From positions 65,138-129,137 of the forward strand of contig JABHWM010000005.1 in assembly GCA_018657765.1 (NCBI GenBank): a stretch of DNA of 64,000 nt, read 5' to 3'. How positions within the stretch are numbered: the first letter of the stretch is position 1; the number at the start of each line of letters is the position of its first letter. Below the pieces are notes generated by a model. That model searched no databases, was not told where the DNA came from, and saw only the letters and a list, made by a program, of their open reading frames with translations. Of this stretch, positions 635 through 31,387 are shown piece by piece. A program made the translations under genes and the position numbers. The DNA is from Minisyncoccota bacterium. GTDB lineage: Bacteria; Patescibacteriota; Microgenomatia; UBA1400; PJMF01.

Positions 635-1759
635 TTAAAAAAGAGCTTCTTTGATTTCTTGTCTAAATAAATCTTCGTTATTAATAGTGTAAACCCATTG
701 ATTCTGATAGATATAAGAAGGTCTAGGGTTATCTAGAGCTCCAGTCTGAGGATTATCTTTAGTGGTAGAGAGTTGATGACTAGAAAACATAATATTTTCA
801 CGAACAGGGATAATTGTTTTGACTGTACTAACTATTTCTTCTAGTGGAAAGACTTCAGAGAATGATGTCTCATAAAATTTATAAAGAGCCCCTGCTAGTT
901 CTGGTTCTTTTACATATTGTTTCAAATCAAGAAGTTGTGTAAATAAAGCTTTAATAACTATTTGTTGTCTTTCTCCTCTAGAAATATCTGTACCTTCATC
1001 GCCTTCACTATGTCTGCTACGAATGTATTTTAAGGCTCTTTCTCCAGATAAAGTTTGTGTTCCAGCTTTGAATTCAACTGTTTCATATAGTATGGCAGGA
1101 TCTCGTTCTACAGTAACGTCAACTCCAGATCTCGGAAACTCTGGATCTATAAATCCTTTTGGTATATCAATAGTAACCCCATTTACAGAGTCGATTAGTT
1201 CTTCAAGTTTATCCAGTGAAAGAACTATTGTGTGATGAATAGGAGTATCTGTTAATTCTTCGATAGTTTCTTGAGTGAATTTTTCTGGCTCATTAGGGTA
1301 TCTATCTAATCCATAAAAGTATAAAGCATTGATTTTTGTTTGATATTTTTCTGACCATAGATCACGAGGTAAAGGTAATGTGTTAATTTCACCTGTTTTT
1401 AAATTCAGTGAGATAAGCATAATAGTGTCTGTTAAAGGAGGGACATCTCCTCTACCAACTACAGAGTCAACTCCTAGCAGGAGAATATTTTTATGATTAT
1501 TTGTTTCTGTAGGGTTTTGTTCTAATCCTATTTGAACAGTGTTTTTAAGTTCTTTGAGAGTAATGCCAGCAGACTTCTCGAATCTTAATAATTTGCTATA
1601 TCCCCAGATTCCGATACCAATAGCTGTGATTAGTAACATAACAAAAGCTATGGACATAGCCATTAGATTTGTTTTTAAAAAAAGAAACCATAAGTTGTTT
1701 GAATACTTATCTTGAGATAATTCAGTTTTTTTTGTTTCTATTTCAATGTTTTTTTTCAT
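635..1759 (-). CDS. LytR-CpsA-Psr (LCP) family glycopolymer-to-peptidoglycan ligase
   Basis: N-terminal TM anchor (MAMSIAFVMLLITAIGIGIWGY) followed by LCP blocks ILLLGVDS...TDTIMLISLN, LPLPRDLW and GERALKYIRSRHSEGDEGTDISRGERQQ. Confidence 0.85.
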   Translation of the reverse strand: MKKNIEIETKKTELSQDKYSNNLWFLFLKTNLMAMSIAFVMLLITAIGIGIWGYSKLLRFEKSAGITLKELKNTVQIGLEQNPTETNNHKNILLLGVDSVVGRGDVPPLTDTIMLISLNLKTGEINTLPLPRDLWSEKYQTKINALYFYGLDRYPNEPEKFTQETIEELTDTPIHHTIVLSLDKLEELIDSVNGVTIDIPKGFIDPEFPRSGVDVTVERDPAILYETVEFKAGTQTLSGERALKYIRSRHSEGDEGTDISRGERQQIVIKALFTQLLDLKQYVKEPELAGALYKFYETSFSEVFPLEEIVSTVKTIIPVRENIMFSSHQLSTTKDNPQTGALDNPRPSYIYQNQWVYTINNEDLFRQEIKEALF

Positions 1760-1878: not shown

Positions 1879-3678
1879 ATGGGCTACAATGAGCAGGTGC
1901 AAAAACTCAAACAGTGGTCAGTTTTATCTTTTTTATTGTTGATATTTTTTGCTGCTTCTTGGTCTTTATTGATAACTTCCAAGTTTTTTAGAGTTCATGA
2001 TTTTACTCACGCAGGTAGAATCTCTGAAATGGCTCAAGCACTTCAAGATGGTCATTTCCCAGTTAGATGGACAGAGAACTTTGGATATGGGTATGGTATG
2101 CCATTATTTGAGTTTTATGGTCCTTTACCTTTCTATATAGGTGCAGTTGTTTTTATACTTTTTGGTAATGTAATTTGGAGTATAAAATTTCTATATCTGT
2201 TATCTAACTTAGGAACGCTTCTCGGCGGATATTTTCTTGGTAAAAAGTTGTTTGGCAGAGTGGGTGGTTTATTGTTGTCAGCTTTCTTGACTTTGGCTCC
2301 TTATAGAGCAATGAATCTTTTTGCTAGAGGGGCTCTTAATGAAGTCTGGGGTATTATGTTTTTACCTTGGATATTGCTTGGTTTATTACAGATTTTTCAT
2401 CAACAGAAAAGTGGTTGGAAAACTTTCTTTTTTTCTTTGGTAGGTTTGTTTTTATCTCACAACATTACTACCATGATTTTTTTACCAATACTAATCATTT
2501 TTGCTTTGGGTTATGGAGGCTTAATGTTTTGGCAGCAAGCACCTGAATTTTTTAGGAAAGGAAGATTTAGAGCTCGCAATGTTCTGAGAATTATTTGGCA
2601 AATGTTTACGACTGGTGTTTTAGCTATTACTGCATCTAGTTTTTATTTAGTCCCTGCTTTTTTAGAAAAGAGCTTCACCCAAGTTGAAAAAATAATTTTA
2701 ACTCCATATTTTGATTATCATTTACACTTTTTATATATTAGACAGTTTTTTACTCCCAATTGGGGATATGGGGGAAGTGGCTGGGGTACAGAAGACGGTA
2801 TTTCTTTTTTCTTAGGTTGGGGACAGTTGTTAGCAGTTTTTTCTTTATTAGCTCTTTGGTTGTATCATTTTTTCCGTAAAATAATGAAAAAAGATGTAGA
2901 GAAAGTTCTTTCTAATAAAGTATTTTACTTAACATTTTTATTTGGAAGTATTTTTCTTTTAAGTAGTTTGATGAGTTTATTAAAAACACAGTTTATTTGG
3001 GATCAGATTTCTCTTTTTAAATTTATTCAATTTCCATGGAGATGGATGAGTATCTCGATTTTGTTTTTATCGATCTTACTGGCTAGCAGAGTATGGTTAT
3101 TTACAAATATAGTTACTAGATCTTGGACTGCTGGTATTTGTATAGTCATAACTGTTTTTAGTTCTGCTATATATTTTCAACCAGAAAAATATCTGGATGA
3201 TGCTAATGATTTTTATTACACAGATAAAATGAATATTCGTAAAAACTTAAGTCAAATTCTTCCTGATTATATTTCTACTGATATGAAAGAAAATCCTACA
3301 ATAATTCCTGACTCATTAATTCTTAATCAAGATTTATTAGCAGACGAATCAGTAGAGATTATTGCAGATAGAGTTCATGAAAAACTTATTAGAACTTCTT
3401 TTACAGAAACAACCAATCTAGAGTTTTCAGTAGCAACTTATCCAGGCTGGAGAGCAGAGATCGATAATCAGTGGTGGAATAAAAACAAAGGAGAAAATGG
3501 AAATATCATGATTGAAATCCCTTCAGGAGATCATCTGGTAAGTCTTCGTTTTGAAAGCACGCCTGTTAGATATTGGTCAGATTTAACTAGCTTTTTTTCT
3601 TGGATTATTTTTATATCTTTTAGTTTTCCAACAGTATCTAAAAAAATATTAAAAAAGAAAAAATTTAAAAATCTATGA
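1879..3678 (+). CDS. YfhO/PTPS-related-type integral membrane protein, probable GT-C glycosyltransferase (family B, copy 1)
   Basis: 599 aa, many hydrophobic helices. It shares three blocks with ORFs 9632..11353 and 29685..31385: an N-terminal loop HAGRISEMAQALQDGHFPVRWTENFGYGYGMPLFEFYGP, a mid FIQFPWRW block, and a C-terminal YPGWRAEIDN block. Confidence 0.6.
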   Translation: MGYNEQVQKLKQWSVLSFLLLIFFAASWSLLITSKFFRVHDFTHAGRISEMAQALQDGHFPVRWTENFGYGYGMPLFEFYGPLPFYIGAVVFILFGNVIWSIKFLYLLSNLGTLLGGYFLGKKLFGRVGGLLLSAFLTLAPYRAMNLFARGALNEVWGIMFLPWILLGLLQIFHQQKSGWKTFFFSLVGLFLSHNITTMIFLPILIIFALGYGGLMFWQQAPEFFRKGRFRARNVLRIIWQMFTTGVLAITASSFYLVPAFLEKSFTQVEKIILTPYFDYHLHFLYIRQFFTPNWGYGGSGWGTEDGISFFLGWGQLLAVFSLLALWLYHFFRKIMKKDVEKVLSNKVFYLTFLFGSIFLLSSLMSLLKTQFIWDQISLFKFIQFPWRWMSISILFLSILLASRVWLFTNIVTRSWTAGICIVITVFSSAIYFQPEKYLDDANDFYYTDKMNIRKNLSQILPDYISTDMKENPTIIPDSLILNQDLLADESVEIIADRVHEKLIRTSFTETTNLEFSVATYPGWRAEIDNQWWNKNKGENGNIMIEIPSGDHLVSLRFESTPVRYWSDLTSFFSWIIFISFSFPTVSKKILKKKKFKNL

Positions 3679-5180
3679 TTAATTCAACTGCTGTTGATAC
3701 AACTGACGAACTAGAAGAGTTAATGGATGATGATATCTCTGAGATAAAAGAGAAATCAGTTTCAGGTGTTGTTTCTTATTTTTTAAGAACAGCCTTTATG
3801 CAAGGCATTGGGTTAGTAGCAATTATTATATTGAGTGCTTTCCTTTCTCCTAGCGATTTTGGTATTTATGGATTTGTAACCCAGATCATTGGTTTACTGA
3901 TTTTCTTTTCTGATGTAGGTCTTGCTGCGGCCTTAGTTCAACAAAAGAAAAATCCAGATAATGAAGAATATAAAGTAATATTTACTTTACAGTGGATTTT
4001 ATCTTTATTAATCGTTGGTGTGATTTTATTATTAATTTGGACTGGTTTTATTCAACAAAAAGTAGGAATAGCTGGTGTCTGGGTATTATTGAGTTTAGCT
4101 GTTTCTTTTCCTTTGGCTACTTTAAAAACTGTTTCATCTATTAAATTAGAGAGGAAACTTCTTTTTCAAAAACTTGTTGTACCTCAGATTTTTGAACAAA
4201 TTATTTTTTATAGTTTATTAATAGCTCTAGCTTGGAAAGGAATGGGAGTATTGTCTTATGCTTATGCCATTATTGCTAGATCTATAGTTGGAGTGATAGT
4301 AATGTGGATTATTGAGCCATGGAAAAAGATTGGTTTTTTATGGAATACCAAAATTCTTAAATCATTATTAAATTTTGGGTTAAAGTTTCAATTTAATGAT
4401 TTTTTAGCAAGAATTAAGGATCAGCTTTTTTATCTAATCTTGGGAATATTTTTGCCTTTAGATCAATTTGGCTATATTCAATGGGCAAAAAATTGGTCTA
4501 TGTATCCATATAACCTAACAGTTCAGAATGTAATGGCTATTACTTTTCCAACTTACTCTAGATTACAGCACAGGCTGGATATCTTAAAAAGAGCTATAGA
4601 AAAATCTTTATTTTTCATTTCATTAGCCATTTTTCCTATTTTAGTAGGAATGAGCATCTTCATCTGGCCACTTACTCAAGTTTTTGAAAAATATAATAAA
4701 TGGGAACCAGCCATTTTTAGTTTTATTTTCTTTGCGCTTAGTATTGGTTGGGCAGCTATCTCTACTCCTTTGGTAAATACTCTGAATGCTATTGGTCATA
4801 TTAATCAAACTCTGAAATTAATGGGGATGTGGACAGTTCTGACTTGGGTTTTGACTCCTGTTTTTATCTGGAAGTTTGGTTTTAATGGTGTTGCACTATC
4901 TGCTTTTATTATTTCTTTCACCTCATTGTTATCTATCAGGATGGTAAAGAAGCATATTCCCGTTGTAATTATTCCTCAGATTAAGAGTGCTTTATTGGCT
5001 GCTATTTTAATGGCTATTGTTGGTTATCTAGGTATAAATTACTGGGCTAGAGACATCTATAGATTATTACTAGGAGTTGTTATTACTAGTGGAGTATATG
5101 GATTATCAATTACTTTACTTGATGGTAAAAAGATATTTGTTGAGATAAAAAGTTTGATTAATAGACCTAAAAAAAAGTAA
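3675..5180 (+). CDS. Wzx-like polysaccharide/oligosaccharide flippase (MOP superfamily)
   Basis: 501 aa, roughly 12-14 hydrophobic helices. N-terminal block VSYFLRTAFMQGIGLVAIIILSAFLSPSDFGIYGFV is typical of the polysaccharide biosynthesis protein family. The ATGA overlap with the upstream gene suggests translational coupling. Confidence 0.7.
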   Translation: MINSTAVDTTDELEELMDDDISEIKEKSVSGVVSYFLRTAFMQGIGLVAIIILSAFLSPSDFGIYGFVTQIIGLLIFFSDVGLAAALVQQKKNPDNEEYKVIFTLQWILSLLIVGVILLLIWTGFIQQKVGIAGVWVLLSLAVSFPLATLKTVSSIKLERKLLFQKLVVPQIFEQIIFYSLLIALAWKGMGVLSYAYAIIARSIVGVIVMWIIEPWKKIGFLWNTKILKSLLNFGLKFQFNDFLARIKDQLFYLILGIFLPLDQFGYIQWAKNWSMYPYNLTVQNVMAITFPTYSRLQHRLDILKRAIEKSLFFISLAIFPILVGMSIFIWPLTQVFEKYNKWEPAIFSFIFFALSIGWAAISTPLVNTLNAIGHINQTLKLMGMWTVLTWVLTPVFIWKFGFNGVALSAFIISFTSLLSIRMVKKHIPVVIIPQIKSALLAAILMAIVGYLGINYWARDIYRLLLGVVITSGVYGLSITLLDGKKIFVEIKSLINRPKKK

Positions 5181-5184
5181 GGGC

Positions 5185-6540
5185 ATGAGTAGACAAATGA
5201 ATAAAAAAATTTTAATTTTTCTGTTATTTGTTATTGGTGGCTTTTTCTTTAGAGTATCTAATTATTATCTTTTTCCTGTTTTTGGAGAAACTTCAGATGA
5301 AAGTGCTTGGACTCTTCTGGGTTCTAGTATTTTACAAGAAAAAGTTCCTGCTTCCTGGTCTTATTTTCAGGCATACGATAATTACGTATATAAAACAGGA
5401 GTTTATGATGCTCCTATAGTTAGGCCTGTTTTTGATCATCCACCGTTATTTTCCTTCTTCCCTGGGTTAGCACACACCTTGAGAGCTAACTGGATTGAGT
5501 CTCCTTCTGCTAAGGTAATTCGTTTGCCAATGGTAATTATTGGAGCAATTAATGTTGGTATTTTTTGGTTAGTAGCTAAAAAGTTTTTTAAAGAAAGAAA
5601 GTGGGCTGCTATTACAACAATTCTTTTTATGACTATTCCAGAGATTGTATTTGGGAGTAGGTTGGTAGTAGCAGAGAATTTAATTGTAACTTGGATTTTA
5701 TTGGCTTTATTGGCAATTCTTTATGAAAAAAAGAAGTGGAGTTTATCTTTATTGTTTTGGGTTAGTGTATTTTCTATTTTGACTAAAATTTCTGGAATAG
5801 TAGTTCCTGTCTCTATTTGTGCTTTAGCGGTTTTGCAAAAAGAAAAAAAATGGTTTAAAGTTGGTTTTTTTGGAGCTGTTACTGGAGTTGCAGTGTTTGC
5901 ACTGTATGGAGCATTTTATAACTGGGAGTTATTTTTGTCTGTCTTACAAGCTCAATCTACCAGAGAATTAGGTCTTGCAACCTTTCAAAACAGGTTTTTT
6001 ATACATCCAACACTAGTTCATCATCTGTTTTTTGATGGTTGGAAAATACTTGGTCTTTTTGCAACATTTTTTATTTTACAAAAGACTCAAAAGAAGTATA
6101 GACTTTTGCAGTTTTTTTCTTTGATAAATATTTTATTTATTATTTCTACAGCAGGAGAAACAACTTTCCATGGTTGGTATGATTTTGTGTTATGGCCTAG
6201 TTTTGTATTAGCTATAGGGTCTTTGTTTAAAGAGATATATGAAAAGAAGCTTTATTTACTTTCAGGATTAGTTTGGATTCTTCTCTTGCCATTATTAAGA
6301 ATGGTTAGTGTTTTTGGTGATTACAATTTATCTTTGTGGGGAGTAAGAGGAGCTGTTAGTCTTGGATTTACTCCTTTGTTTTTTGAGTCTATATCTTTCA
6401 AAAAAACTAGTCAAAGGTTTTTAGTTTTATTTTTTGGATTGTTAATAATCTTAAATATTTTTGTTGTTTTTTCTATTACTCATACTGGATACTGGAATCA
6501 AGCTGAGTTCTTTTCATCTAATATGCCGAAGGTAAGGTAG
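5185..6540 (+). CDS. PMT/ArnT-like (GT39-type) integral membrane glycosyltransferase, singleton
   Basis: 451 aa multi-pass protein. It has an acidic first-loop motif (GETSDESAW) and a VFDHPPLF block resembling the DVHPPL block of protein O-mannosyltransferases. Confidence 0.5.
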   Translation: MSRQMNKKILIFLLFVIGGFFFRVSNYYLFPVFGETSDESAWTLLGSSILQEKVPASWSYFQAYDNYVYKTGVYDAPIVRPVFDHPPLFSFFPGLAHTLRANWIESPSAKVIRLPMVIIGAINVGIFWLVAKKFFKERKWAAITTILFMTIPEIVFGSRLVVAENLIVTWILLALLAILYEKKKWSLSLLFWVSVFSILTKISGIVVPVSICALAVLQKEKKWFKVGFFGAVTGVAVFALYGAFYNWELFLSVLQAQSTRELGLATFQNRFFIHPTLVHHLFFDGWKILGLFATFFILQKTQKKYRLLQFFSLINILFIISTAGETTFHGWYDFVLWPSFVLAIGSLFKEIYEKKLYLLSGLVWILLLPLLRMVSVFGDYNLSLWGVRGAVSLGFTPLFFESISFKKTSQRFLVLFFGLLIILNIFVVFSITHTGYWNQAEFFSSNMPKVR

Positions 6541-6661
6541 TTAGATATTATTTTTTAGTTCTGGATTTATTTCTTTTAAGACCTTTATTGCAAACCATTT
6601 ATCAGATTTTTTCATATATTTTTTAATTATATCAAACATTAAATACTGATTTAATTATAAA

Positions 6662-6688
6662 AACAGGCTGATTTTTAAGCAGCCTGTT
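6662..6688. terminator. bidirectional intrinsic terminator hairpin between convergent genes
   Basis: Perfect 9-bp stem aacaggctg (6662..6670) / cagcctgtt (6680..6688) with a 9-nt loop, flanked by A/T-rich runs. It lies between the stop at 6540 (+) and the stop at 6719 (-). Confidence 0.7.
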
Positions 6689-6718
6689 CTACATTTTATT
6701 TATATTTTAGTATTCTTC

Positions 6719-7714
6719 TTATAAGAATAAGAGGAGGATTGCTCCAGCACCTAGTGCTCCAAGTCCTGCAGAAAGATATTTCAACCAATCTTCTGGACCT
6801 GTTGCTGGGAGTGTTGAAGGAAGAGGCGGTTGAGTAGGGTCTACATTTACTGTAACACTAGTTGTAGAAGTACTACTAGAACTTGAGCTAGAAGAGGTTG
6901 GTTCTGCAGTAGGTTCACTGGTTGGCTCTGTAACAGTAGTAGGCTGAGGTGTTGGCTCAGTAGTAGGCTCTGTTGTAGGTTCTGTGGTTGGAAGAGGTTC
7001 ATCAGCACAACTACAGATATCTTTTGTATCATCTCCTGCTGCTCCTGTAGAAGTACATTCACCAGTCTCAGTTCCTGTAGAACAAGTATCTCCAAAATCT
7101 TTTCCTTGGCAGCTAGCCACAGAAGTTGTGGAACAGTCTCCTAGAGAACATGCCTCAAATGGAACTGCACATAGTTCATCTTTTTCACAACCATCTGCAT
7201 AAGTAATACATTCTTCATTAGCACCAATGCATGAGCCTGTTATTTCAGTACAAACTTCTGGGGTTGGAGTAGGAGTAGCACAGGCAGTCATGTTTGTGGT
7301 CCATGCACCACCAGGTGCTGGGCAACAGTAATCTACGCCACCACATCCTTGAACTCTTCCGGCTGAGTTACAGATACTATCATCAGATGATCCATCTGAC
7401 TCTGGAGGAGTACAACTTCTTAAAACACCATCACTACCAGGACATTGTTCCACACATTGAGTAGCTTGTTGTCTAACATCTTGAGGTTTTTCAACTAAAA
7501 ATAAGCTAGCCAAGCCTCCAATAGCTAAAATAGCAAGAATTATTCCTCCAATAAGATAAGTTTTCATTGGAGATTTTTTTTCTGGAACGGGTTGTTGGGG
7601 TGCTTGTGGAGCAAGCTCTGGAGATGGCGCTGGTGCAGAACTCACAGCTGGCTGTTGGGGAATATTGCTAGCTTGTGGTTGAGGTTCAGTATTTGATCCT
7701 GTGACGTTAATCAT
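6719..7714 (-). CDS. Cys-rich secreted/surface protein with Pro/Thr/Ser repeat stalk and C-terminal LPATG sortase-type sorting signal
   Basis: 331 aa, in four parts. (1) A P/Q-rich N-terminus. (2) A TM/signal-anchor (TYLIGGIILAILAIGGLASLFLV). (3) A roughly 165-aa domain with 20 Cys by my count. (4) A TEPT-type repeat and S8 run, then LPATG (6797..6811) followed by hydrophobic LSAGLGALGAGAILLLFL. No basic tail follows the hydrophobic segment. Confidence 0.7.
   Translation of the reverse strand: MINVTGSNTEPQPQASNIPQQPAVSSAPAPSPELAPQAPQQPVPEKKSPMKTYLIGGIILAILAIGGLASLFLVEKPQDVRQQATQCVEQCPGSDGVLRSCTPPESDGSSDDSICNSAGRVQGCGGVDYCCPAPGGAWTTNMTACATPTPTPEVCTEITGSCIGANEECITYADGCEKDELCAVPFEACSLGDCSTTSVASCQGKDFGDTCSTGTETGECTSTGAAGDDTKDICSCADEPLPTTEPTTEPTTEPTPQPTTVTEPTSEPTAEPTSSSSSSSSTSTTSVTVNVDPTQPPLPSTLPATGPEDWLKYLSAGLGALGAGAILLLFL
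6857..7000 (-). repeat. imperfect tandem 12-nt (TEPT/EPTx) repeats plus poly-Ser tract inside the LPATG protein gene
   Basis: This stretch translates to EPLPTTEPTTEPTTEPTPQPTTVTEPTSEPTAEPTSSSSSSSSTSTTS. The repeat is visible on the plus strand as recurring ggttggctc/gtaggttc units. Confidence 0.8.
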
Positions 7715-7859
7715 TGTATTAGTTTTCCTAATTTCATATTCAAATTACTATATAAGGATACGTCAACATAAGGAGTCTTGTAAACAGGGGGTTTTATAAT
7801 TTTATGGCAATTTGAAGATAATAGTTTATAAATACAATTTTATGTACTACATTAGTAAT

Positions 7860-9623
7860 ATGTCTATTTTAAAAAAGTTTTTATTTTTAGCAAATAATTT
7901 CATTAACTCAGATTTTTTTAAATTAATTATTATCTTATTAATTGCTTTATTTTTAAGAACTTTCCGTTTGTCTTTTTCTCCACCCAGATTAACTCACGAT
8001 GAGATGAGTATTGGATATAATGCTTATTCTATTTTAAAAACTGGAAAAGATGAGTGGGGGCGCAGCTTTCCCCTAGATTTTGAAGCTTTTGGAGATCACA
8101 AGCTTCCTGGTTATATATATTCTTTAGTGCCGTTCCTGAGTTTTCTGCCGATGAGCATGGTTTCAATTAAAATCCCATCAATAATCGCTGGCCTCTCTAC
8201 TATTTTAGCGATGTTTTATTTGACAAAAACTATCACAAAAAATAGACATTTAAGTTTTTTAACCGCTTTTCTACTGGCCATTAGTCCTTGGCCAATTCAT
8301 ATTTCTAGAATGGCTTTGGAGTCTAATCTAGCTTTAGCTTTATTTTCTTGGGGTATTTATTTTTTGATAAAAACATTTGATTTGAATTCTGTAAAAGATG
8401 CTTCAAAAAACTTGGTTAAAGACAATAGAGCGGCTATTTTAGCTGGATTGTTTTTAGCTTTTAGCACATATTTTTATATAGCTTATAGATTGATTGTTAT
8501 TTTGGTTTTATTTTTAACACTAGTTTTAACATTCAAATATAAGCTCAGTAAAAAAAGATTACTAGCTTTATTTAGTGTTTTTATTTTAGTTTTATTACCT
8601 CTCATCGGACAGCTATTCGGTAAATCAGGAACAGCTAGATTTACCCAAGTATCTATTTTTTCTAATGATGGGGTAGAGGCAACTATTTTAGAGCAACATA
8701 ATTTTTGTTTTCTTTCACAACCAAAATTTCTACCTAGAATTTGTAGAGTTATTTACAACAAACCATTTTTCTATATAAAAACTTTTAGTAAAAATTATTT
8801 ATCATTCTTATTACCTACTTTCCTTTTTATAGAAGGAGATCAATTGGAGTATCTCAATGACCCTAGTTTTGCTGAGTTTTATATGTTTTTAATTCCTTTT
8901 TACCTAATGGGAATTAATTATTGGGTTAAGAAAAAAGGCTATAAAGCAGATATTATTAAATATAGTTTTTTGATAGCTCCCATACCATCTGCTTTAGTGG
9001 GAGATCCGCAAATAGTTAGAGGCAGTGCTTTACTGCTTTTTGTGACTTTGTTTTCTGCTACCGGTATTTATGAAGTTTTCAGATTAATTAAAAAGAAGTT
9101 TTATAAGTATTCCTTTGTAGTATTTACATTATTGTTGACATTAATATCTTTAGTTAGATTTTTTATAAGCTATAGTTATATATATCCTGGAAAATACGAA
9201 AACTCTTTTTATCAGTTATCAGACAAAATTGCTTTATTTATGTTGGAAAAAGAATCTGATTATGATTTAATTTATATAGATAAAAATTTTCCAGATGCTC
9301 ATATTTTAATTTCTTTTTATAATCAAATAGATCCTAGTTGGTATCAAGATAATATCGTTAGACCTGTGAGTCAAGATGGTTTTGGTTTTTCACATCCTAC
9401 TAAACTTGGTAAATATGAGTTTGGTGATGAGCTATTGGATGGCTTTATTTGTAATGAAGAAGATGATAAAAAAGTTCTTTATGTAAGTAATCATTTGGAG
9501 ATACCTGCTGATTGGGTATTTAAAGATTTCTCTAATGTTCATACACAAGTACAGGTTTATGATATTGATCAAACAAGAGATAAATTAAAAAAAGCCAAGT
9601 TGTTTAGAAATATTTGTCATTAA
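7860..9623 (+). CDS. ArnT/PMT-like (GT39/GT83-type) GT-C membrane glycosyltransferase, family A copy 1
   Basis: The track ORF starts at TTG 7812; I prefer ATG 7860 (MSILKKFLF...). Family A blocks present: THDEMSIGYNAYSILKTGKDEWGRSFPLDFEAFGDHKLPGYIY and SPWPIHISRMALESNLA. Many TM helices plus a soluble C-terminal domain. Confidence 0.65.
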   Translation: MSILKKFLFLANNFINSDFFKLIIILLIALFLRTFRLSFSPPRLTHDEMSIGYNAYSILKTGKDEWGRSFPLDFEAFGDHKLPGYIYSLVPFLSFLPMSMVSIKIPSIIAGLSTILAMFYLTKTITKNRHLSFLTAFLLAISPWPIHISRMALESNLALALFSWGIYFLIKTFDLNSVKDASKNLVKDNRAAILAGLFLAFSTYFYIAYRLIVILVLFLTLVLTFKYKLSKKRLLALFSVFILVLLPLIGQLFGKSGTARFTQVSIFSNDGVEATILEQHNFCFLSQPKFLPRICRVIYNKPFFYIKTFSKNYLSFLLPTFLFIEGDQLEYLNDPSFAEFYMFLIPFYLMGINYWVKKKGYKADIIKYSFLIAPIPSALVGDPQIVRGSALLLFVTLFSATGIYEVFRLIKKKFYKYSFVVFTLLLTLISLVRFFISYSYIYPGKYENSFYQLSDKIALFMLEKESDYDLIYIDKNFPDAHILISFYNQIDPSWYQDNIVRPVSQDGFGFSHPTKLGKYEFGDELLDGFICNEEDDKKVLYVSNHLEIPADWVFKDFSNVHTQVQVYDIDQTRDKLKKAKLFRNICH

Positions 9624-9631
9624 TCAAGATT

Positions 9632-11353
9632 ATGAAAACATTTTTAAAATTATTAAAAAATGAGCAAAAGAAAAAACTCTTTTTTGCAAGTTTATTTATT
9701 ATTATTTTTTCTTTATTTATATCTAGGAATCTTTTTACTGATTCTTTGCCTCGTACAGATGATTTAGAGTTACATGGCGCTCGTTTGGCTAATTACTATT
9801 TAGCAATTAAACAAAATCAATTTCCTCCGTATTGGGGGCCTAATTTGAACTATGGTTTTGGTTACCCTATTTTTCTTTTTTCTTATCAATTTCCATATAT
9901 AACGGCTGTTATTTTTTATTTTTTAGGATTGAGTATTGAGATTAGTCTTAATTTAACAATGACTATTTTTATTATTAGTGGTGGTTTAGGAATGTTCTAT
10001 CTTTCTTATATAAAAAATAAAAATATTTTATTAGCTATTACTTCAGCACTAATTTATCAAACAACTCCATATATGTTGTTAAATATTTTTGTAAGAGGTG
10101 CTCTTGGAGAAATTTCTTTTTTAGGAATTTTACCCTGGATTTTTATTTTTATAGAGCTTAGAAAAAAATCTAATCAGTGGTGGTATAAAATTTTTAGTAT
10201 TTTTATATTTTCTAGTTTAATTTTATCTCATCCAGTATCTTTAGTAGTGGCTGGGCCGCTTATTTTAATTTGGTTGTTTTTTGATGGTTTCTATTTTGAA
10301 TTAAAAAATTGGAAAAAAAATAATTATGCAATTAAATTTTTATTTAATGGTTTTTTGAGTTTAGGAATAACAGCTTTTTATTGGCTGCCTTTTATTTTTG
10401 AGAAAAAATATATTGTTATTGATGGTCACAACATAATTAATAACTTTTCTAATAGATTTTTACCAGTCAAACAATTACTATTTTCTAGATGGGGTCATGG
10501 TGGAGCTGATATAAGTATTCCTAATGATGTTTTTCCAGCTACTCTTGGTTTATCTATTTTAGTCATTTTATTTTATTCATTAATAAAATTAATTAAATTC
10601 TTGAAAAAAGAGAATTCAATAAAAAAATACAAGGATGTTATTTTTTGGTTAGTAGTTTTCTTTTTATCAGTATTTTTAATGTTACCAATCTCTAAAAAAG
10701 TTTGGAATTTTTCAAAAGTTCTTCCATATCTTCAATATCCATGGCGTTTATTATGGGTAAGCACTTTTTCTGGAATAATGATTTTAAATTCATGGAAAAA
10801 AATAAATAAATTTATTTTGTATATTATATTGGTAATAGTTTTACATCATTCTATTTTTTACACCAATCCAGTTGGTTATATTAGTAATTCAAATCATGAT
10901 TGGTTGGAGTATTTTGGAACATCTACATCAGATAATGAGCTGAAAGCAAAATGGTTTGATGAGCATAAAAACATAGGTATTACCGAGAAAATTGTATTAA
11001 ACCCTCCAAGTTCAAATCAAAAAATAGATATTAGTTCATGGAACGGCTCAGAAATGGTTTATGAAATAGAAACTGATAGTTCTACTAATGTTTTACAAAA
11101 AACTATGTATTTCCCTGGATGGGAGGCTGTTGTTGATGGTGAGAAAGTTGATATTAACTATATGAATGAAGAATTCCCAGGAAGAATTAATTTCTCTTTA
11201 GAAAAAGGAAAACATAATATAAAAGTTAACTTTACTAATAATACTCCAGCTAGAAAAACAGGTCTTTATTTAACATTGGTTAGTATAATTACTTATATTG
11301 TAGTAATTTTATTCTCTTTATTTAAAACTATAAAAAACAATAAAAATCAATGA
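9632..11353 (+). CDS. YfhO/PTPS-related-type GT-C membrane protein (family B, copy 2)
   Basis: The track ORF starts at TTG 9614; ATG 9632 lies just after the upstream stop. Blocks present: HGARLANYYLAIKQNQFPPYWGPNLNYGFGYPIFLF, LQYPWRLLW, and C-terminal YFPGWEAVVDGEKV...KGKHNIKVNF. Confidence 0.6.
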   Translation: MKTFLKLLKNEQKKKLFFASLFIIIFSLFISRNLFTDSLPRTDDLELHGARLANYYLAIKQNQFPPYWGPNLNYGFGYPIFLFSYQFPYITAVIFYFLGLSIEISLNLTMTIFIISGGLGMFYLSYIKNKNILLAITSALIYQTTPYMLLNIFVRGALGEISFLGILPWIFIFIELRKKSNQWWYKIFSIFIFSSLILSHPVSLVVAGPLILIWLFFDGFYFELKNWKKNNYAIKFLFNGFLSLGITAFYWLPFIFEKKYIVIDGHNIINNFSNRFLPVKQLLFSRWGHGGADISIPNDVFPATLGLSILVILFYSLIKLIKFLKKENSIKKYKDVIFWLVVFFLSVFLMLPISKKVWNFSKVLPYLQYPWRLLWVSTFSGIMILNSWKKINKFILYIILVIVLHHSIFYTNPVGYISNSNHDWLEYFGTSTSDNELKAKWFDEHKNIGITEKIVLNPPSSNQKIDISSWNGSEMVYEIETDSSTNVLQKTMYFPGWEAVVDGEKVDINYMNEEFPGRINFSLEKGKHNIKVNFTNNTPARKTGLYLTLVSIITYIVVILFSLFKTIKNNKNQ

Positions 11354-11377
11354 TTTAGGATCATCTAGCTTGGCTTA

Positions 11378-11406
11378 TTGTAAGCACCTTTTCTAGAGGG
11401 TACAAT
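11378..11406 (+). promoter_or_regulatory. sigma70-like promoter candidate (TTGTAA-N17-TACAAT)
   Basis: -35 TTGTAA at 11378..11383, a 17-nt spacer, and -10 TACAAT at 11401..11406. It sits 11 nt upstream of the ATG at 11418, in one of the few real intergenic gaps of the array. Confidence 0.35.
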
Positions 11407-11417
11407 GGAAAATACAT

Positions 11418-12326
11418 ATGACAAATAAGCTATCTGTTGTTATTAATACTAAAAATGTTTCCAAGACTTTAGAAACAACATTGAAATCTATTGACTTTGC
11501 TGATGACATTGTTGTTGTTGATATGGAGAGTACTGATGAAACTCTTTTGATTGCTAAAAAATACACCAAGAGAATTTTTCAACATGAAGATGTTGGCTAT
11601 GCAGATCCTGCTCGTAATTTTGCTATTTCTAAGGCAAAACATAATTGGATACTGGTGGTAGATGCAGATGAAGTTATTTCAAAAGATTTACAAACAATAA
11701 TTTTGAGCACTATTTCAGATAAAAATACTGCTGATATTTATCATTTCCCTAGAAAGAACTTTGTTTTCGGGAAATGGATTATGAAGACAGGTTGGTGGCC
11801 TGATTATCAACCCCGTCTTTTCAAAAAAGGAGCTGTTTCCTGGCAGGTAGGGGTTCATCGTTTACCAGATATGGTTGGTAAACAAGAAAAATTTCCTGCT
11901 GAAGAAAAATATGCTATAGAACATGCTAACTATAAAGACATTTCTCATTTTATAGAAAAACTGAATCACTATACTTCTATTCAAGCAAAAGAACGCTTAT
12001 TAAAGTCATCTAAAGATGATTTCTCTTCTAGTGAAATGTTCGAGATTTTTGCAAATGAATTGGCAAAGCGTTCTCTAATGATGAATGGTACAGAAGAAGG
12101 TTTGCATGGTACTTCGCTCTCATTTTTACAAGCAACTTATGAAGCAGTCATTTATTTGAAACAATGGGGAGAAATGGGATCAAAAGAAACTCAACCAGAG
12201 GACTTCGGATTAATACTGCAAAAAATGCAAAAAATATGGAGATATTGGTGGGCTGATTATAGAGTAAGAAACACTTCTGGTTTATCTAATATTTATTGGA
12301 AGATAAGAAGAAAATTCAAAATATAG
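11418..12326 (+). CDS. family 2 glycosyltransferase (WaaE-like subfamily, copy 1)
   Basis: GT-A blocks LSVVINTKNVSKTLETTLKSI...VVVDMESTDET and VVDADEV. Shares WWPDYQPRLFKKG with the paralogs at 15091 and 27859. Confidence 0.75.
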   Translation: MTNKLSVVINTKNVSKTLETTLKSIDFADDIVVVDMESTDETLLIAKKYTKRIFQHEDVGYADPARNFAISKAKHNWILVVDADEVISKDLQTIILSTISDKNTADIYHFPRKNFVFGKWIMKTGWWPDYQPRLFKKGAVSWQVGVHRLPDMVGKQEKFPAEEKYAIEHANYKDISHFIEKLNHYTSIQAKERLLKSSKDDFSSSEMFEIFANELAKRSLMMNGTEEGLHGTSLSFLQATYEAVIYLKQWGEMGSKETQPEDFGLILQKMQKIWRYWWADYRVRNTSGLSNIYWKIRRKFKI

Positions 12327-12368
12327 TATTTATTCTTTTTTATTGGAAGTTAGAAAGAAAAGTTTTTT

Positions 12369-14102
12369 ATGAAAAATCTATTTAAAAATAAATTATTTTT
12401 ATTAGGTTTAATTGTCATATTAGCTTGTTTTCTTAGGTTTTTTAAATTAGGCAGTGTTCCCCTAGAGCTAAATAGAGATGAAGCCTCTCTTGGATATACA
12501 GCTTACTCTATTTTAAAAACAGGTCGTGAAGAGCATGGTCAGTTTTGGCCTATTCAAATAGAGTCTTTTGGTGACTGGAAACTTCCTTTATATGTTTATA
12601 GCTTGATTCCATTTATAGCTGTTTTTGGTCTAGAAGCTTGGGTTGTTAGATTACCTTCTGCACTAGTCGGGATAGGAATTATTATTGTTAGTCACTTTTT
12701 AGTTTTGAGGTTATTTGACAAAACACAGAAAAAAAATTTATTAGCTATTTTAATTCCTTTATTATTAGCTGTTAGCCCATGGCAAATTCATTTTTCTCAT
12801 GTTGCTTATGAAGCGCACCTTAGTATGTTTTTATTTATTCTGGGTTTATTGGGATTTTTGATTGTTAAGGAGAAATTTTTAAAGTTAAAAATAAGAGATA
12901 TTCGGTTGTTTAGTTTATCAATGTTATCTTGGGCAGTTACTTTATTGGGTTACCATGCTTATCAGGCTTTTATTCCTTTGTTTTTTATTAGTATGATGTT
13001 TTTCTATAGAGATTTTTTGAAAAGATTTTTTACTGACAAAAATGGTAAATATTTTTTCAAAGATTTATTTATTGCTTTGTTACCTTTTATGATAATAGGG
13101 TCAGTATTGATAGCTAGTGGAGTTAGTGGAGCTAATAAAACTAAGTTTTCTGGTCTTTCTATATTTAGTCCTCAATCTTATTCTTTGGAAGTTGGTAAAG
13201 AACGACAAATGTTGCCAAGTCCTAATCACCCATTTTTTGTATTTGTAATAAATAAATATACTTCTATCGTAAATCAGATAGAAACAAATTTCTTTAATTT
13301 AATTTCTCCAGATTTTCTTTTTATTAGAGGTGGTAACAATGGGGCACACAATATTACAGGATATGGTAATTTGTACTCATTTTTATTTTTTGGTCTAGTT
13401 GTGGGAATAGTCTCTATTTTTATAAGCTCATCTGAAAGTTTATCTATCTTGGGTATTTGGTTAATAACAGCATCAGTTGCTCCAATGATTACTTTTGCGG
13501 CTAATCATACAGTTCGTTTTTCACCAGGATTTATACCTGCAGAGATATTATCTGTTTATGGCTGGTTAGTTATTTTTAATATTTTACGTAAAAAAATATC
13601 AGCTAAGTTTTTTAAGATTATATTATCTATTTTCTTTATAGTAGTTTTTTACTTAGTCTATAAATTTTTGGTTACTTATTATTTTATCTTTCCAAGGAGA
13701 GACTTAGAGCGTTGGTCATGGCAGATGAAATCAGTAGTTTTTCAGGTTGATGTTTTGAAAGATAACTATGACAAAGTTATTGTTCAAGATGAGCAGAGTT
13801 CTCCATACATTTACTTTTTATTTCATCTCAAAGTAGATCCCGAAACTCTATCAGAAAGAATAGAATACTATCCAGTAGATAATGAAGGCTTTAAACACGT
13901 AAAGCGTTTTGATAATATTTACTTTGAGAAAATAGATTGGGAAATCAGAAACTATTCTGATGAAAATAGATTATTTGTTGTTTCTAACCAAGAAATACCT
14001 GATTATAATAGATTTAATGAAAATTTTTCTTTGATAGAAGTTTTAGAAAATGATAATGTTAAGAAAGAAGTAGAGTTTTGGAGTTATCAGTCTCTTCAGT
14101 AA
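12369..14102 (+). CDS. ArnT/PMT-like GT-C membrane glycosyltransferase, family A copy 2
   Basis: Blocks LNRDEASLGYTAYSILKTGREEHGQFWPIQIESFGDWKLPLYVY, SPWQIHFSHVAYEAHL and PDFLFIRGGNNGAHN. Multi-pass with a soluble C-terminus. Confidence 0.65.
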   Translation: MKNLFKNKLFLLGLIVILACFLRFFKLGSVPLELNRDEASLGYTAYSILKTGREEHGQFWPIQIESFGDWKLPLYVYSLIPFIAVFGLEAWVVRLPSALVGIGIIIVSHFLVLRLFDKTQKKNLLAILIPLLLAVSPWQIHFSHVAYEAHLSMFLFILGLLGFLIVKEKFLKLKIRDIRLFSLSMLSWAVTLLGYHAYQAFIPLFFISMMFFYRDFLKRFFTDKNGKYFFKDLFIALLPFMIIGSVLIASGVSGANKTKFSGLSIFSPQSYSLEVGKERQMLPSPNHPFFVFVINKYTSIVNQIETNFFNLISPDFLFIRGGNNGAHNITGYGNLYSFLFFGLVVGIVSIFISSSESLSILGIWLITASVAPMITFAANHTVRFSPGFIPAEILSVYGWLVIFNILRKKISAKFFKIILSIFFIVVFYLVYKFLVTYYFIFPRRDLERWSWQMKSVVFQVDVLKDNYDKVIVQDEQSSPYIYFLFHLKVDPETLSERIEYYPVDNEGFKHVKRFDNIYFEKIDWEIRNYSDENRLFVVSNQEIPDYNRFNENFSLIEVLENDNVKKEVEFWSYQSLQ

Positions 14103-14136
14103 AATAACTCAGTAACCAGTATAATGTAAGGATACT

Positions 14137-15054
14137 ATGGAACACGTCACAACTCTTATTGTTAACTATAATACTCCTAAAGATACAGAGCTCGCTATTC
14201 GTTCTGCCGTAAACGCTAGAGCAGATGGCTTCGTACATCAAGTTATAGTGGTCGATAATGGCTCTAAGGAGCCACTTAAATTATCTAAAGATATGGAAAA
14301 AGCAGGTGTAGTTCTAATTAGAAGTGCTGCTAATCTTGGTTTTACTGGTGGTAATAATCTAGCTATGAGCCATGCAGTTAAAGAATTTCAGACTGATTAT
14401 TTTTTCTTATTAAACCCTGATGCAGAAGTAGAAAAAGATGGGGTTCAAAAATTATATGAGGCTATTAAAGATGATCCAAAAGCTGGTATAGCTGTCTCAA
14501 AGATATATTTCACTCCTGGACTTGAATATCATAGAAAAAGCTACTCTAGAGCAGAAAAAGGGAAAGTTATTTGGTATGCAGGTGGAAGTATTGATTGGCC
14601 CAATTTAGTTGCTGACCATAGAGGAGTTGATGAAGTAGATAGAAAGCAATTTGATCACCAGACAACTTGTGATTTTGCTACAGGTTGTGCTCTTTTTGTA
14701 AAAAGAGTAGTCACAGAACATATTGGTATTTTGGATAAAAAATTCTTTTTATATTCTGAAGATGTTGATTTTAGTCTACGAGCCAAAAAAGCTGGTTATA
14801 AAATTGTTTTTGTCCCAGAGTCTATTGTTTGGCACATGAATGGAGGCTCTATGCCTGGAGGAGTAGGATCAGGATTTCAACAATATTATCAAACAAGAAA
14901 TAGACTTTTAATTTCTGCTTTACACGGCAGTTGGAGAAACAAGTTAACTGCTTTGAGATTTGCTTTTAATACTTTTTTTAATGGTTCTGATGCAGAAAGA
15001 AAAGGAGTTATGGACTTCTTTTTATTGAGATTTGGAAAACAATCAGTCGTATAA
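14137..15054 (+). CDS. family 2 glycosyltransferase (rhamnosyltransferase-like)
   Basis: Blocks LIVNYNTPKDT, VVDNGSKE, NLGFTGGNN, LLNPDAEV and FLYSEDVDFSLRAKKAGYKIVFVPESIVWH. Confidence 0.75.
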   Translation: MEHVTTLIVNYNTPKDTELAIRSAVNARADGFVHQVIVVDNGSKEPLKLSKDMEKAGVVLIRSAANLGFTGGNNLAMSHAVKEFQTDYFFLLNPDAEVEKDGVQKLYEAIKDDPKAGIAVSKIYFTPGLEYHRKSYSRAEKGKVIWYAGGSIDWPNLVADHRGVDEVDRKQFDHQTTCDFATGCALFVKRVVTEHIGILDKKFFLYSEDVDFSLRAKKAGYKIVFVPESIVWHMNGGSMPGGVGSGFQQYYQTRNRLLISALHGSWRNKLTALRFAFNTFFNGSDAERKGVMDFFLLRFGKQSVV

Positions 15055-15090
15055 CTTATTAAGTTGTAACTTTAGGTTTTAGAGATAATC

Positions 15091-15921
15091 ATGGATAAGA
15101 AAAAGATGAAAATATCAGCAATTATTTTGGCAAAAGATGAATCATCAATGATAGAGGGTTGTATTAATTCTCTTGATTGGTGTGATGAGATTTTATTGGT
15201 TGATAATGGATCATCAGATGATACTGTCATTAAAGCTGAAAACCTCGGTGCCAGAGTGATTAGTTTTTCTCATCCTTCTTTTGCTAGAAAAAGAAACGAA
15301 GGTTTAAAACACGCTACTGGTGACTGGATTTTTTATATTGATGCAGATGAAAGGGTTACTCCTACTTTTGCCAAAGAAATTTTGGTTCATATAGAGACTG
15401 GTGAGGCTACTGTTTTAGAATCTCAAAGAAAAAACTATTGTTATGGCTTTCCTTTCTCTTATGGAGGCTGGCAAGATGATTTTGTAACTAGAATTTTCAA
15501 AAAAGAATCTCTCAAAGAATGGACAGGTAAAATTCATGAGAGCCCTGTTTATGAAGGAACAGTTGTAAAACTTCATTCTTCACTAATACATTTAACTCAC
15601 AGAAGTACGGAAGATAACCTTAGAAAATCTGCAGACTGGACAAAACTGGAGGCAGACCTTTTATATAAAGCTGGAGAAAAACCAGTTAATCTTTTTACAT
15701 TGGTTCGTAAAGGAGTAATGGAGTTTTTTAGAAGAGTTGTTTTGAAAAAAGGATACAAAGATGGAATGCCTGGAGTTATAGAAGGAGTTGTTCAAGGAAT
15801 AAATAGAATGATTATTTATATCCAGGTTTGGGAGTTACAACAAAAACCTTCTTTATCAGATAGATACTCTAAAAAAGAAACAGAGATTAAAAATCTTTGG
15901 AAAAAAGAGAAAAACATTTAA
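15091..15921 (+). CDS. family 2 glycosyltransferase (WaaE-like subfamily, copy 2)
   Basis: Blocks ISAIILAKDESSMIEGCINSL...LLVDNGSSDDT and YIDADERV. The C-terminal block YKDGMPGVIEGVVQGINRMIIYIQVWELQQK is shared with ORF 27859. Confidence 0.75.
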   Translation: MDKKKMKISAIILAKDESSMIEGCINSLDWCDEILLVDNGSSDDTVIKAENLGARVISFSHPSFARKRNEGLKHATGDWIFYIDADERVTPTFAKEILVHIETGEATVLESQRKNYCYGFPFSYGGWQDDFVTRIFKKESLKEWTGKIHESPVYEGTVVKLHSSLIHLTHRSTEDNLRKSADWTKLEADLLYKAGEKPVNLFTLVRKGVMEFFRRVVLKKGYKDGMPGVIEGVVQGINRMIIYIQVWELQQKPSLSDRYSKKETEIKNLWKKEKNI

Positions 15922-15925
15922 AGTT

Positions 15926-17041: not shown

Positions 17042-17069
17042 TTTGAAAAAATTTAAACAAGGAAACAAA

Positions 17070-19588: not shown

Positions 19589-19639
19589 TCTTAAGGTGAT
19601 TTTATTTTACTAGTTTTAGTCAAAAGGTAAGTATAAATT

Positions 19640-21283: not shown

Positions 21284-21310
21284 TTTATTAAGTTATTGAT
21301 ATAAGTAAAA

Positions 21311-21334
21311 TGAGCGAGGTTGAAGCCTCGCTCA
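21311..21334. terminator. bidirectional intrinsic terminator hairpin
   Basis: Perfect 9-bp GC-rich stem tgagcgagg (21311..21319) / cctcgctca (21326..21334) with a 6-nt loop, between convergent stops at 21283 (+) and 21352 (-). Confidence 0.75.
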
Positions 21335-21351
21335 TTAGGGTTTATGGTTGC

Positions 21352-22181: not shown

Positions 22182-22205
22182 GAACAATAATTAAAGAAAG
22201 AAAAT

Positions 22206-31385: not shown

Positions 31386-31387
31386 AA

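Follow-up and report, generated by a model that had tools for sequence, protein, structure and literature searches.

A cysteine-rich modular protein with two sorting signals, probably displayed on the cell surface of a marine Microgenomates bacterium

INTRODUCTION

What is a gene for a cysteine-rich protein doing on the opposite strand of a long array of glycan-synthesis genes, and where does its product go? This question is raised by a stretch of 64,000 nt from a Minisyncoccota bacterium (NCBI GenBank assembly GCA_018657765.1, contig JABHWM010000005.1, positions 65,138 to 129,137 of the forward strand), hereafter called the window, in whose coordinates all positions are given. Its minus-strand gene at 6719..7714 encodes a protein of 331 aa that combines an N-terminal membrane helix, a cysteine-rich part, a stalk rich in Pro, Thr and Ser (PT/S stalk) and an LPATG motif followed by a hydrophobic end. 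An earlier note, made from the sequence alone, had read this protein as a secreted surface protein with a sortase-type C-terminal signal and as a candidate acceptor for an O-glycosylation machinery encoded around it. To our knowledge, surface proteins of the candidate phyla radiation (CPR, or Patescibacteria), whose members are thought to live attached to cells, are barely known apart from type IV pili, and protein O-glycosylation has not been shown in these bacteria; a literature search found no relevant report of it.

The answer that we consider probable, taken with the whole chain of steps it implies, is that the gene encodes a lineage-specific display protein on the surface of a marine, Pacebacteria-like bacterium of the Microgenomates. 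That is, the protein would be exported via Sec with its N-terminus staying in the cytoplasm, its cysteine-rich modules would form about 10 disulfides after crossing the membrane, with oxidation by machinery of the MdbA/VKOR type, and the N-terminal anchor would probably be removed at or near an invariant Ala at the junction to the exported part. A sortase would cut LPATG between the Thr and the Gly and join the stalk to the wall (peptidoglycan), so that the wall-spanning and possibly O-glycosylated stalk would hold the disulfide-knotted head at the surface. There, the head would most likely bind a ligand or a component of a host surface.

RESULTS

A complete and native gene

The open reading frame (ORF) is a complete coding sequence with an ATG start and a stop codon at 6719..6721. 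Its reality, as asserted by the earlier note, is borne out by 46 homologs, the closest with an E-value of 1e-161, and by the fact that NCBI assembly GCA_018694315.1, a 183-kb ENA contig and others, at least 21 public contigs in total, encode exactly the same protein. No other convincing minus-strand gene interrupts the plus-strand array (1879..60874). The note's count of only two such genes was roughly right, except that the second one, encoding a LytR-CpsA-Psr (LCP) phosphotransferase (635..1759), lies just before the array proper; an epimerase gene on the same strand (62478..63449) lies just after it. The note had also remarked on a GC-rich gene, with a hand count of 31 G/C out of 60 at 6901..6960. 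This count is exact, and the GC content amounts to 43.8% for the gene against 30.1% for the whole window. The excess is located at codon positions 1 (GC 0.55) and 2 (0.60), whereas GC at the third position (GC3) is 0.169, at or below that of 22 neighbouring genes (0.215 +/- 0.024). The high GC is thus explained by a product rich in Pro, Thr, Ala, Gly and Cys, foreign origin as its source is ruled out, and the gene is therefore native, with the genome's own codon usage. The location opposite to the array and a GC content 14 points above the window mean could in principle point to a spurious antisense ORF or to a recently acquired foreign gene, but with 46 homologs that conserve the cysteines and both signals, a genome-typical GC3, a position conserved in relatives, and elements resembling a ribosome-binding site (RBS) and a terminator at either end, such an explanation is next to impossible.

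The first of these elements, read from the sequence, is a Shine-Dalgarno-like AGGA on the minus strand at 7726..7729, 11 nt upstream of the ATG of M1. No AGGA of this kind precedes M50, which had been considered as a possible true start, and the proteins of the family commonly begin with a conserved 'MIN[VTI]': this start was found in 23 of 39 proteins with a C-terminal tail of the PEDW type described below, against 2 of 1267 others, and the passengers carried by these proteins are unrelated. Because 'MIN[VTI]' travels with the PEDW-type tail across unrelated passengers, M1 is the true start, and the N-terminal extension is no annotation artefact; the conserved start and the position of the RBS rule out M50. 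At the other end of the gene, 30 nt past the stop codon, there is a terminator-like hairpin (6655..6689, minus strand) with a 10-bp stem and a 9-nt loop, followed by UUUUUAU. It folds at -16.4 kcal/mol (z = -3.3; direct folding), and a consensus terminator scan gave no match here, the loop limit of the scan being 8 nt. The locus was absent from all three metatranscriptomes of the study holding the DNA, and these are uninformative on its expression.

The cysteine-rich head consists of three modules

All 20 cysteines that had been counted in the protein are present, not spread over about 165 residues as had been stated, but all within residues 87-236, i.e. 150 residues. Comparison of the 46 homologs, and then of 150 more representatives, divided this part into three separate modules, all Cys positions of which are invariant or nearly so (alignment A1). 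Module A (7280..7456 on the minus strand, as are all features of the gene given below; residues 87-145, 59 aa) contains 8 Cys and follows the consensus C.E.CPG.DGVLR.CTPPE.DGS..DS.CN.AGRVE.CGG..YCCP..GG.WTT.MTAC (alignment A1). Module B (7148..7252; residues 155-189, 35 aa) and module C (7007..7135; residues 194-236, 43 aa) contain 6 Cys each. An even number of Cys in every module (8, 6 and 6) would fit complete disulfide pairing.

An exhaustive HMM search among 1.84 billion proteins identified 198 cluster representatives of module A at E <= 0.001. By comparison, a word-indexed database of 5.8 billion proteins returned 2 matches for the module A profile and 3 for the C-terminal signal, both queries being too short for its index. 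There are one to three copies of module A per protein, with three in P0006 and two in P0008 and P0013 (family proteins are numbered P, and their loci L). Module B was recovered by jackhmmer as a separate unit in P0001, P0007 and P0009-P0011, and it directly follows module A where module C is elsewhere, while module C is a stand-alone unit in about 13 proteins, located N-terminal to module A in some and occurring without it in others. The order is C-A-B in P0007 and P0009-P0011 and A-C in P0002-P0005, and C is found alone in P0018 and P0038. As these arrangements show, the three modules are shuffled independently among surface proteins. In larger proteins the partners of module A are DUF11, dockerin, fn3 and Ig-like domains, and never an enzyme domain, and the module behaves as a building block of surface proteins. 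A MAFFT alignment of the whole ectodomain (A4) put shuffled modules in the wrong places and was set aside in favour of separate alignments of modules B and C (A5).

AlphaFold2 (AF2) models of module A (pLDDT 86) and module C (about 86) are both small and beta-rich, the latter being rich in beta-hairpins, and the model of module B, built from six sequences only, is not confident (pLDDT about 40). Scans of Pfam and NCBIfam assigned none of the three modules to a family, and a profile search of the PDB with module A gave no match. Likewise, searching the PDB with Foldseek using the AF2 models of modules A and C yielded best E-values of 5.5 and 3.3, respectively, the method being weak on domains of fewer than 60 aa, for which a remote kinship of fold is possible. 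That is, homologs of the cysteine-rich domain, which the note had proposed to look for by HMM and structure prediction, do exist in the form of shuffled modules, but without a match to a known family or fold, and modules A, B and C are among the new elements of this protein.

Two sorting signals flank the passenger

The protein starts with a 49-residue extension (7568..7714; residues 1-49), made up of 'MINV' and a Pro/Gln-rich segment ending in KK, which sequence comparison shows to be a conserved feature. By the positive-inside rule it is predicted to be cytoplasmic, as basic residues precede the transmembrane (TM) helix. This single N-terminal helix (7496..7567; residues 50-73, hydrophobic core 54-72), a putative export signal or signal anchor, has a mean Kyte-Doolittle value of 2.49 over 19 residues, and an N-terminal TM helix is found in 169 of the 178 family proteins that start with M, often after an extension of 20-60 residues. 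At the junction between helix and head lies the motif QDVRQQA (7463..7483; residues 78-84), a candidate processing site, with module A beginning 2 residues later. The consensus of 116 unique junctions is G..AG..LV-[QRK]-Q-[NQS]-Q-[DN]-[ITLV]-R-[EQ]-[QK]-A-[AS], with D present in 79% and R in 81%; Q and A were fixed by the search pattern itself. In these 116 junctions, the first Cys of the passenger domain comes 1-4 residues after the motif. A processing site is suggested here by the Ala, which is invariant, and by its constant spacing from the passenger. No description of a motif at such a post-TM junction, or of a signal motif of Microgenomates, was found in a literature search.

On the C-terminal side, the head is followed by the PT/S stalk (6836..7006; residues 237-293, 57 aa), with TTEP repeats, a run of eight Ser (S8) and then 'VTVNVD'. 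The repeats correspond to a 12-nt tandem repeat of about 3.8 copies at 6934..6985 (Tandem Repeats Finder). The length of the stalk differs between strains, P0001 having about 23 aa less. The C-terminal sorting signal TQPPLPST-LPATG-PEDWLKYLSAG-LGALGAGAILLLFL (6722..6835; residues 294-331) contains the LPATG motif at 6797..6811 (residues 302-306), and the putative sortase cut between T and G falls within the stretch PLPSTLPATGPEDW. After the charged spacer PEDWLKY comes a hydrophobic segment of 18 residues, LSAGLGALGAGAILLLFL, and the protein ends in ...GAILLLFL without any K or R. The TEPT-type repeats, the S8 run, the LPATG and the hydrophobic end without a basic tail are therefore all present as first described.

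Alignment of 19 tails defined the subtype QP.LP..LP.[TS]G-PEDWL.YL..GLGALG.GALLLLFL, in which P8, L11, P12, G15, G26, L27, G31, G33 and L40 are invariant. These include L, P and G of the sortase motif, whose position 4 is T or S; this upholds the view of a secreted cysteine-rich protein carrying a sortase-type signal on a PT/S stalk. More generally, xPx[TS]G followed by a hydrophobic end was found in 85 of 190 proteins, 78 of which are tail-less, the other 7 being sister proteins with a K-rich tail. The tail-less signal is thus the usual form in this family, and the sister subtypes, which have a shorter spacer and a K-rich tail (LPESGS...KNKS, LPNAGS...KYKN), grade into classical signals. Two fragments are labelled 'LPXTG-motif cell wall-anchored protein' by JGI. 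Moreover, the N-terminal and C-terminal signals show a strong tendency to be on the same protein: among 1175 ORFs from related loci, which had been chosen for the family, the odds ratio is 30 (p = 7e-18). Both are also found on proteins with unrelated passengers, namely P0026, P0038, P0039, P0040, P0045 and P0046.

Distribution and divergence of the family

Relatives of module A, the most conserved of the three, occur in 55 loci of GTDB species genomes, and all the informatively named ones are Microgenomates (OP11), including Collierbacteria, Shapirobacteria, Woesebacteria, Pacebacteria and 'Microgenomatus'. The DNA of the locus was found in marine and seawater metagenomes, and the closest syntenic named genome is that of Candidatus Pacebacteria CG2_30_36_39 (L023). 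As far as seen here, the modular family is restricted to Microgenomates-type genomes. Many of the metagenome-assembled genomes with family members (L013, L014, L016, L020, L026 and others) are titled 'uncultured Pseudomonadales' or 'uncultured Gammaproteobacteria'. These titles conflict with the gene content and with the synteny with Pacebacteria/Collierbacteria, and are probably placeholders or a wrong taxonomy.

In 6 of 7 syntenic loci, the gene is the most diverged of its block, with 47-57% identity against 53-84% for orthologous neighbours. In the remaining one, from the closest strain (L082), the protein is 78% identical compared to 92-94% for the flank made up of the membrane glycosyltransferase 1879, the Wzx flippase and the glycosyltransferase 5185 (described below), but glycosyltransferase 7812 (79%, partial alignment) and the poorly matched glycosyltransferase 12369 are as low as or lower than the protein itself. 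Such divergence, together with the variable length of the stalk, is what a fast-evolving protein exposed at the surface, with a stalk prone to slippage, should show. In L082 (positions 1149-2778 of a Logan contig of SRR31655985), the ortholog of the glycosyltransferase 7812..9623 was called as three pieces of 277, 65 and 136 aa, for which a pseudogene, a recombination breakpoint and an assembly error are all possible.

Module-A genes also form arrays of paralogs, three in L008 (9950-13533) and two in L009 (10001-11848); the L008 array adjoins a lasso-peptide-like or PqqD/ScmC-type cluster together with GT2 and GT4 glycosyltransferase genes. In four loci of the Collierbacteria type (L019, L025, L026, L040), there are conserved tandem clusters of two to three proteins with a cell-wall sorting signal (CWSS) and 17-51 Cys, located between the PilN/PilO genes of type IV pilus assembly and genes for an amine-oxidase-like protein, a DUF2298 membrane protein and an LCP protein.

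The surrounding glycan island and the glycosylation link

Positions 1879-60874 of the window constitute one plus-strand envelope-glycan island of about 60 kb. It encodes about 13 membrane proteins of the GT-C glycosyltransferase fold, with weak PMT, PMT_2, PTPS_related, GT87 or PIG-V similarity or none, the assignment of large multi-TM proteins without a Pfam match to GT-C being our own judgement and not a family match. The island further holds genes for two Wzx flippases (3675-5180 and 56394-57656), an ABC-2 permease/ATPase pair (39653-41697) and many GT2, GT4, methyltransferase, nucleotidyltransferase and epimerase genes, and an arginyl-tRNA synthetase gene (22606-24372) is embedded in the middle. 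The convergent neighbour of the gene studied here (5185..6540, plus strand) encodes a GT-C-fold membrane glycosyltransferase of 451 aa. It has no Pfam match itself, its orthologs carry PF13231 (PMT_2), and T36, D38, E39, A41 and W42 in its loop 1 are invariant. The GT-C encoded at 7812..9623 scores 22.4 with PF02366 (PMT) against a cut-off of 22.7, and the one at 1879..3678 scores 27.8 with PMT_2 against a cut-off of 26.1; the gathering score of PF02366 is not reached by any neighbour. A PDB sequence search with two of the GT-C neighbours found no relative, and matches to a TM stretch of MerF (E about 0.03) were dismissed. It can thus be retained that a stalk with 28 Ser/Thr and 11 Pro stands beside GT-C-fold genes, but their description as PMT-like by the earlier note comes down to weak PMT/PMT_2 scores at clan level.

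The pairing with the GT-C 5185 type recurs in two contexts. In seven ortholog loci (47-78% identity), the gene keeps its place and opposite strand, between a 5185-type GT-C gene and the next genes, with the Wzx and 1879-type GT-C genes alongside and the LCP gene wherever the locus extends far enough, the other genes of the block being replaced. In the second context (L010, L030, L079), a homolog of GT-C 5185 of 449 aa, 33-35% identical (E about 1e-66; phmmer), is encoded directly upstream of a protein made up of module A, a PT linker and LPxSG; jackhmmer recovered no other GT-C subfamily. At L010, the pair has UvrB on one side and a GDP-mannose-pyrophosphorylase-like gene on the other, outside any polysaccharide cluster, and in L030 the adjacent pair is likewise flanked by UvrB and a GDP-mannose-pyrophosphorylase-like gene. 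Furthermore, among 16 metagenome loci with the GT-C 5185 subfamily, a module-A gene is adjacent in 5 (L066, L067, L068, L077, L079). The pairing is therefore real in two or three lineages but far from obligatory.

The LCP gene (635..1759, minus strand; PF03816, E 1e-29) belongs to the same conserved block and lies about 5 kb, or four genes, from the gene studied here. It is found together with the latter in 5 of 6 syntenic ortholog loci (L001, L005, L012, L013, L023) and in the metagenome loci L066-L068. LCP genes also occur 2-4 kb from the genes for cysteine-rich CWSS proteins in the Collierbacteria-type loci L019, L025, L026 and L040. No LCP gene was found near the GT-C/module-A pair in L010 and L030.

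Alternative explanations

Several observations weigh against the chain proposed in the Introduction. Neither phmmer with S. aureus SrtA as the query nor a TLxTC/His/Arg pattern detected a sortase in the 64 kb of the window or in the regions flanking the genes at 65 related loci, a search that covers the gene neighbourhood only; of the genome-wide search that the earlier note had suggested, this part came back empty. Nor did the sortase-motif check it had called for succeed, since the curated LPXTG-anchor model TIGR01167 scores 9.2 bits only, below its cut-off of 15.9, 11 partly charged residues separate LPATG from the hydrophobic segment, and the basic tail is absent. Because that model is not reached, the signal is referred to here as sortase-type and is not counted as a canonical LPXTG member. 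Further upstream, the residue at -3 of the junction Ala is E, Q, N or R (Q here), a misfit with the rule for type I signal peptidase, and no function of the head, such as the adhesin or lectin that the earlier note had suggested, can be derived, there being no family, PDB or fold match. One could therefore argue that the C-terminal segment is a plain membrane anchor or the target of another enzyme, so that one end of the protein, or each of them, would stay in the membrane. The missing neighbouring sortase gene, the low TIGR01167 score, the tail-less end and the charged PEDWLK spacer would all agree with this, as would a conservation that reaches far beyond LPXTG (QP.LP..LP.[TS]GPEDWL) and suggests more specific recognition. 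However, invariance falls precisely on those residues that make up L, P and G in a sortase motif, position 4 is T or S, the K-tailed sister subfamilies grade into classical signals, and JGI labels fragments as LPXTG anchors. Moreover, Meheust et al. 2019 (PMC6744442) reported that over half of the CPR genomes encode a sortase family, which is 'near ubiquitous in Microgenomates', and that an MdbA-like thiol-disulfide oxidoreductase, often with an adjacent VKOR gene, is enriched in CPR. Because these enzymes are reported for CPR and Microgenomates, both an anchoring enzyme and an extracytoplasmic oxidation system would in principle be available, by analogy, and we consider a plain anchor unlikely.

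The weakest step of the proposed display chain is glycosylation. The island can be expected from its gene content to make wall glycopolymers, which would be the default substrate of its GT-C genes, and for this reason adjacency to a GT-C gene says little by itself. What is more, phmmer (1e-5) found no GT-C within 8 kb for 31 of the 39 module-A genes, most family members thus being located elsewhere, and the module-A gene is missing from at least 9 of the 16 GT-C 5185 loci, some contigs being too short to judge; L078, whose flanking genes are unannotated, appears by gene sizes and order to be an L010-like locus with the module-A gene absent. It is quite conceivable, at a little less than even chances, that there is no specific link to GT-C at all, and that the gene is a fast-evolving surface cassette, gained and lost within a wall-glycopolymer island, with its stalk bare or modified by distant enzymes; the synteny in orthologs would then be due to common descent alone. 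Indeed, the island is self-sufficient for the synthesis and export of a polymer (two Wzx, ABC-2, LCP, GT2, GT4), and the gene, as the sole opposite-strand gene of the array and with its own terminator-like hairpin, would therefore not be co-transcribed with the array. Against such independence speaks the reappearance of this GT-C subfamily beside a module-A CWSS protein elsewhere, in another genomic setting (L010, L030, L079), as well as a synteny that persists at identities as low as 47%, with other genes of the block having been exchanged; genes of the GT-C clan (DUF2298, a membrane protein that we take to be a member of this clan) and LCP genes also lie near cysteine-rich CWSS genes in Collierbacteria loci. 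On balance, the idea of an O-glycosylation acceptor draws on a syntenic GT-C and one pairing in a second context but is met by a majority of unpaired family members, and glycosylation of the stalk by the neighbouring GT-C is, on these gene comparisons, doubtful. Should the stalk, which is a plausible site for O-glycosylation, be glycosylated, GT-C 5185..6540 would be the best candidate enzyme.

The LCP gene offers another route to a glycosylated protein, in which the LCP enzyme (635..1759) would transfer the lipid-linked glycopolymer of the island onto the protein before a sortase anchors it to the wall, as for GspA of Actinomyces. In favour of this, LCP is the other minus-strand gene of the block, is kept with the gene studied here in the syntenic and metagenome loci listed above, recurs close to the cysteine-rich CWSS genes of the Collierbacteria type, and stands at an island with Wzx flippases and an undecaprenyl-type pathway. 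On the other hand, LCP enzymes normally link polymers to peptidoglycan, which alone would explain an LCP gene at the island edge; the gene is some 5 kb and four genes distant, L010 and L030 keep the GT-C pairing without a nearby LCP, and the protein has no Pfam or NCBIfam match, the GspA sequence itself not having been compared. We consider transfer by LCP improbable. About as improbable is the most far-reaching version of the display reading, namely a complete lineage-specific two-signal display pathway, in which a non-canonical peptidase would act at QDxRxxA behind the 'MIN[VTI]' start, Pro-rich extension and TM helix, the near-universal sortase would read the tail-less LPx[TS]G-PEDWL, GT-C 5185..6540 would O-glycosylate the stalk, and the modules would be new disulfide-knot folds for binding to a host or ligand.

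Comparison with known systems

The protein resembles the LPXTG substrates of sortase A in monoderms in having an export signal, a passenger, a Pro/Thr/Ser stalk, an LPXTG and a hydrophobic end. It differs from them in its tail-less end, the 11-residue spacer PEDWLKYLSAG, a Gly-rich hydrophobic end, a second LP upstream (LPSTLPATG), the 49-aa extension, QDxRxxA instead of an AxA site, and the unreached TIGR01167. In Actinomyces oris, lcpA and gspA are adjacent and the sortase substrate GspA is glycosylated in an LcpA-dependent manner (PMC6381275). The locus described here also has a gene for a sortase-type substrate in a block with LCP and glycan-synthesis genes, but the LCP gene is four genes away, the protein shares no Pfam or NCBIfam family with GspA (on the limit already given for GspA), the recurring pairing is with GT-C and not with LCP, and any glycosylation is putative.

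Actinobacterial Pmt (GT39) O-mannosylates Pro/Thr-rich secreted proteins. The similarity to that system consists of a Thr/Ser/Pro-rich extracytoplasmic linker encoded next to GT-C-fold enzymes, with donor candidates in the island. The latter are a 231-aa GT2 (33581..34276) and a 112-aa DUF2304 membrane protein (34273..34611), whose genes overlap within 33581-34611; the pair is reminiscent of a polyprenyl-phosphate-sugar synthase accompanied by a small partner and could supply lipid-linked donors to the GT-Cs. Unlike actinobacterial Pmt, the neighbours show clan-level PMT similarity only, they are among about 13 GT-C genes of a polymer island, and no PDB sequence relative was found for the two that were searched. 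The streptococcal serine-rich repeat glycoproteins GspB and Fap1 have a long signal region, a Ser/Thr-rich stalk and an LPXTG anchor. The protein shares with them a long N-terminal signal region, a repetitive Ser/Thr stalk and a C-terminal LPXTG, but its stalk is only 57 aa long, its disulfide-rich head would fit extracytoplasmic and not cytoplasmic modification, and neither SecA2/Y2 nor GtfA/B is encoded in the window.

A sortase-type surface protein with a PT/S stalk is of a well-known kind; what is new are the three Cys modules, the tail-less extended C-terminal signal, and the N-terminal extension with QDxRxxA. Literature searches found no description of the modules or of the two sorting signals. 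The protein is a compact example of a family that appears restricted to Microgenomates, in which three undescribed modules are flanked by sorting signals that do not follow the textbook. These signals provide a simple rule for listing the surface proteome of Microgenomates: at the N-terminus, a TM helix and then Q[DN]x[RSNQ]xxA; at the C-terminus, xPx[TS]G with a tail-less hydrophobic end. The pairing of the GT-C 5185 subfamily with module-A proteins is a testable candidate for protein O-glycosylation in CPR, and if true, GT-C 5185..6540 and the stalk would be the first defined enzyme-acceptor pair of this type in CPR. If the glycosylation link is false, the result would still be a useful annotation of a hypothetical protein, one that is unsurprising in kind.

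Other features of the window

The composition of the island is not uniform: positions 41000-56000 have a GC content of 22-28% compared to about 31%, and a positive AT skew, and match the ABC-transporter-dependent part with its methyltransferase, GT4 and nucleotidyltransferase genes. This sub-region looks like a variable, possibly exchanged, O-antigen-like cassette. At 21283-22606, the gap between the GT-C gene 19640-21283 and the arginyl-tRNA synthetase gene, there are only overlapping small ORFs on both strands (21310-21678 on the plus strand and 21352-21756 on the minus strand), without a family match or a tRNA. Finally, where the island ends, just ahead of the epimerase gene (62478-63449, minus strand), there is a small HNH endonuclease ORF of 133 aa (61385-61786, plus strand; PF01844, E 7e-5).

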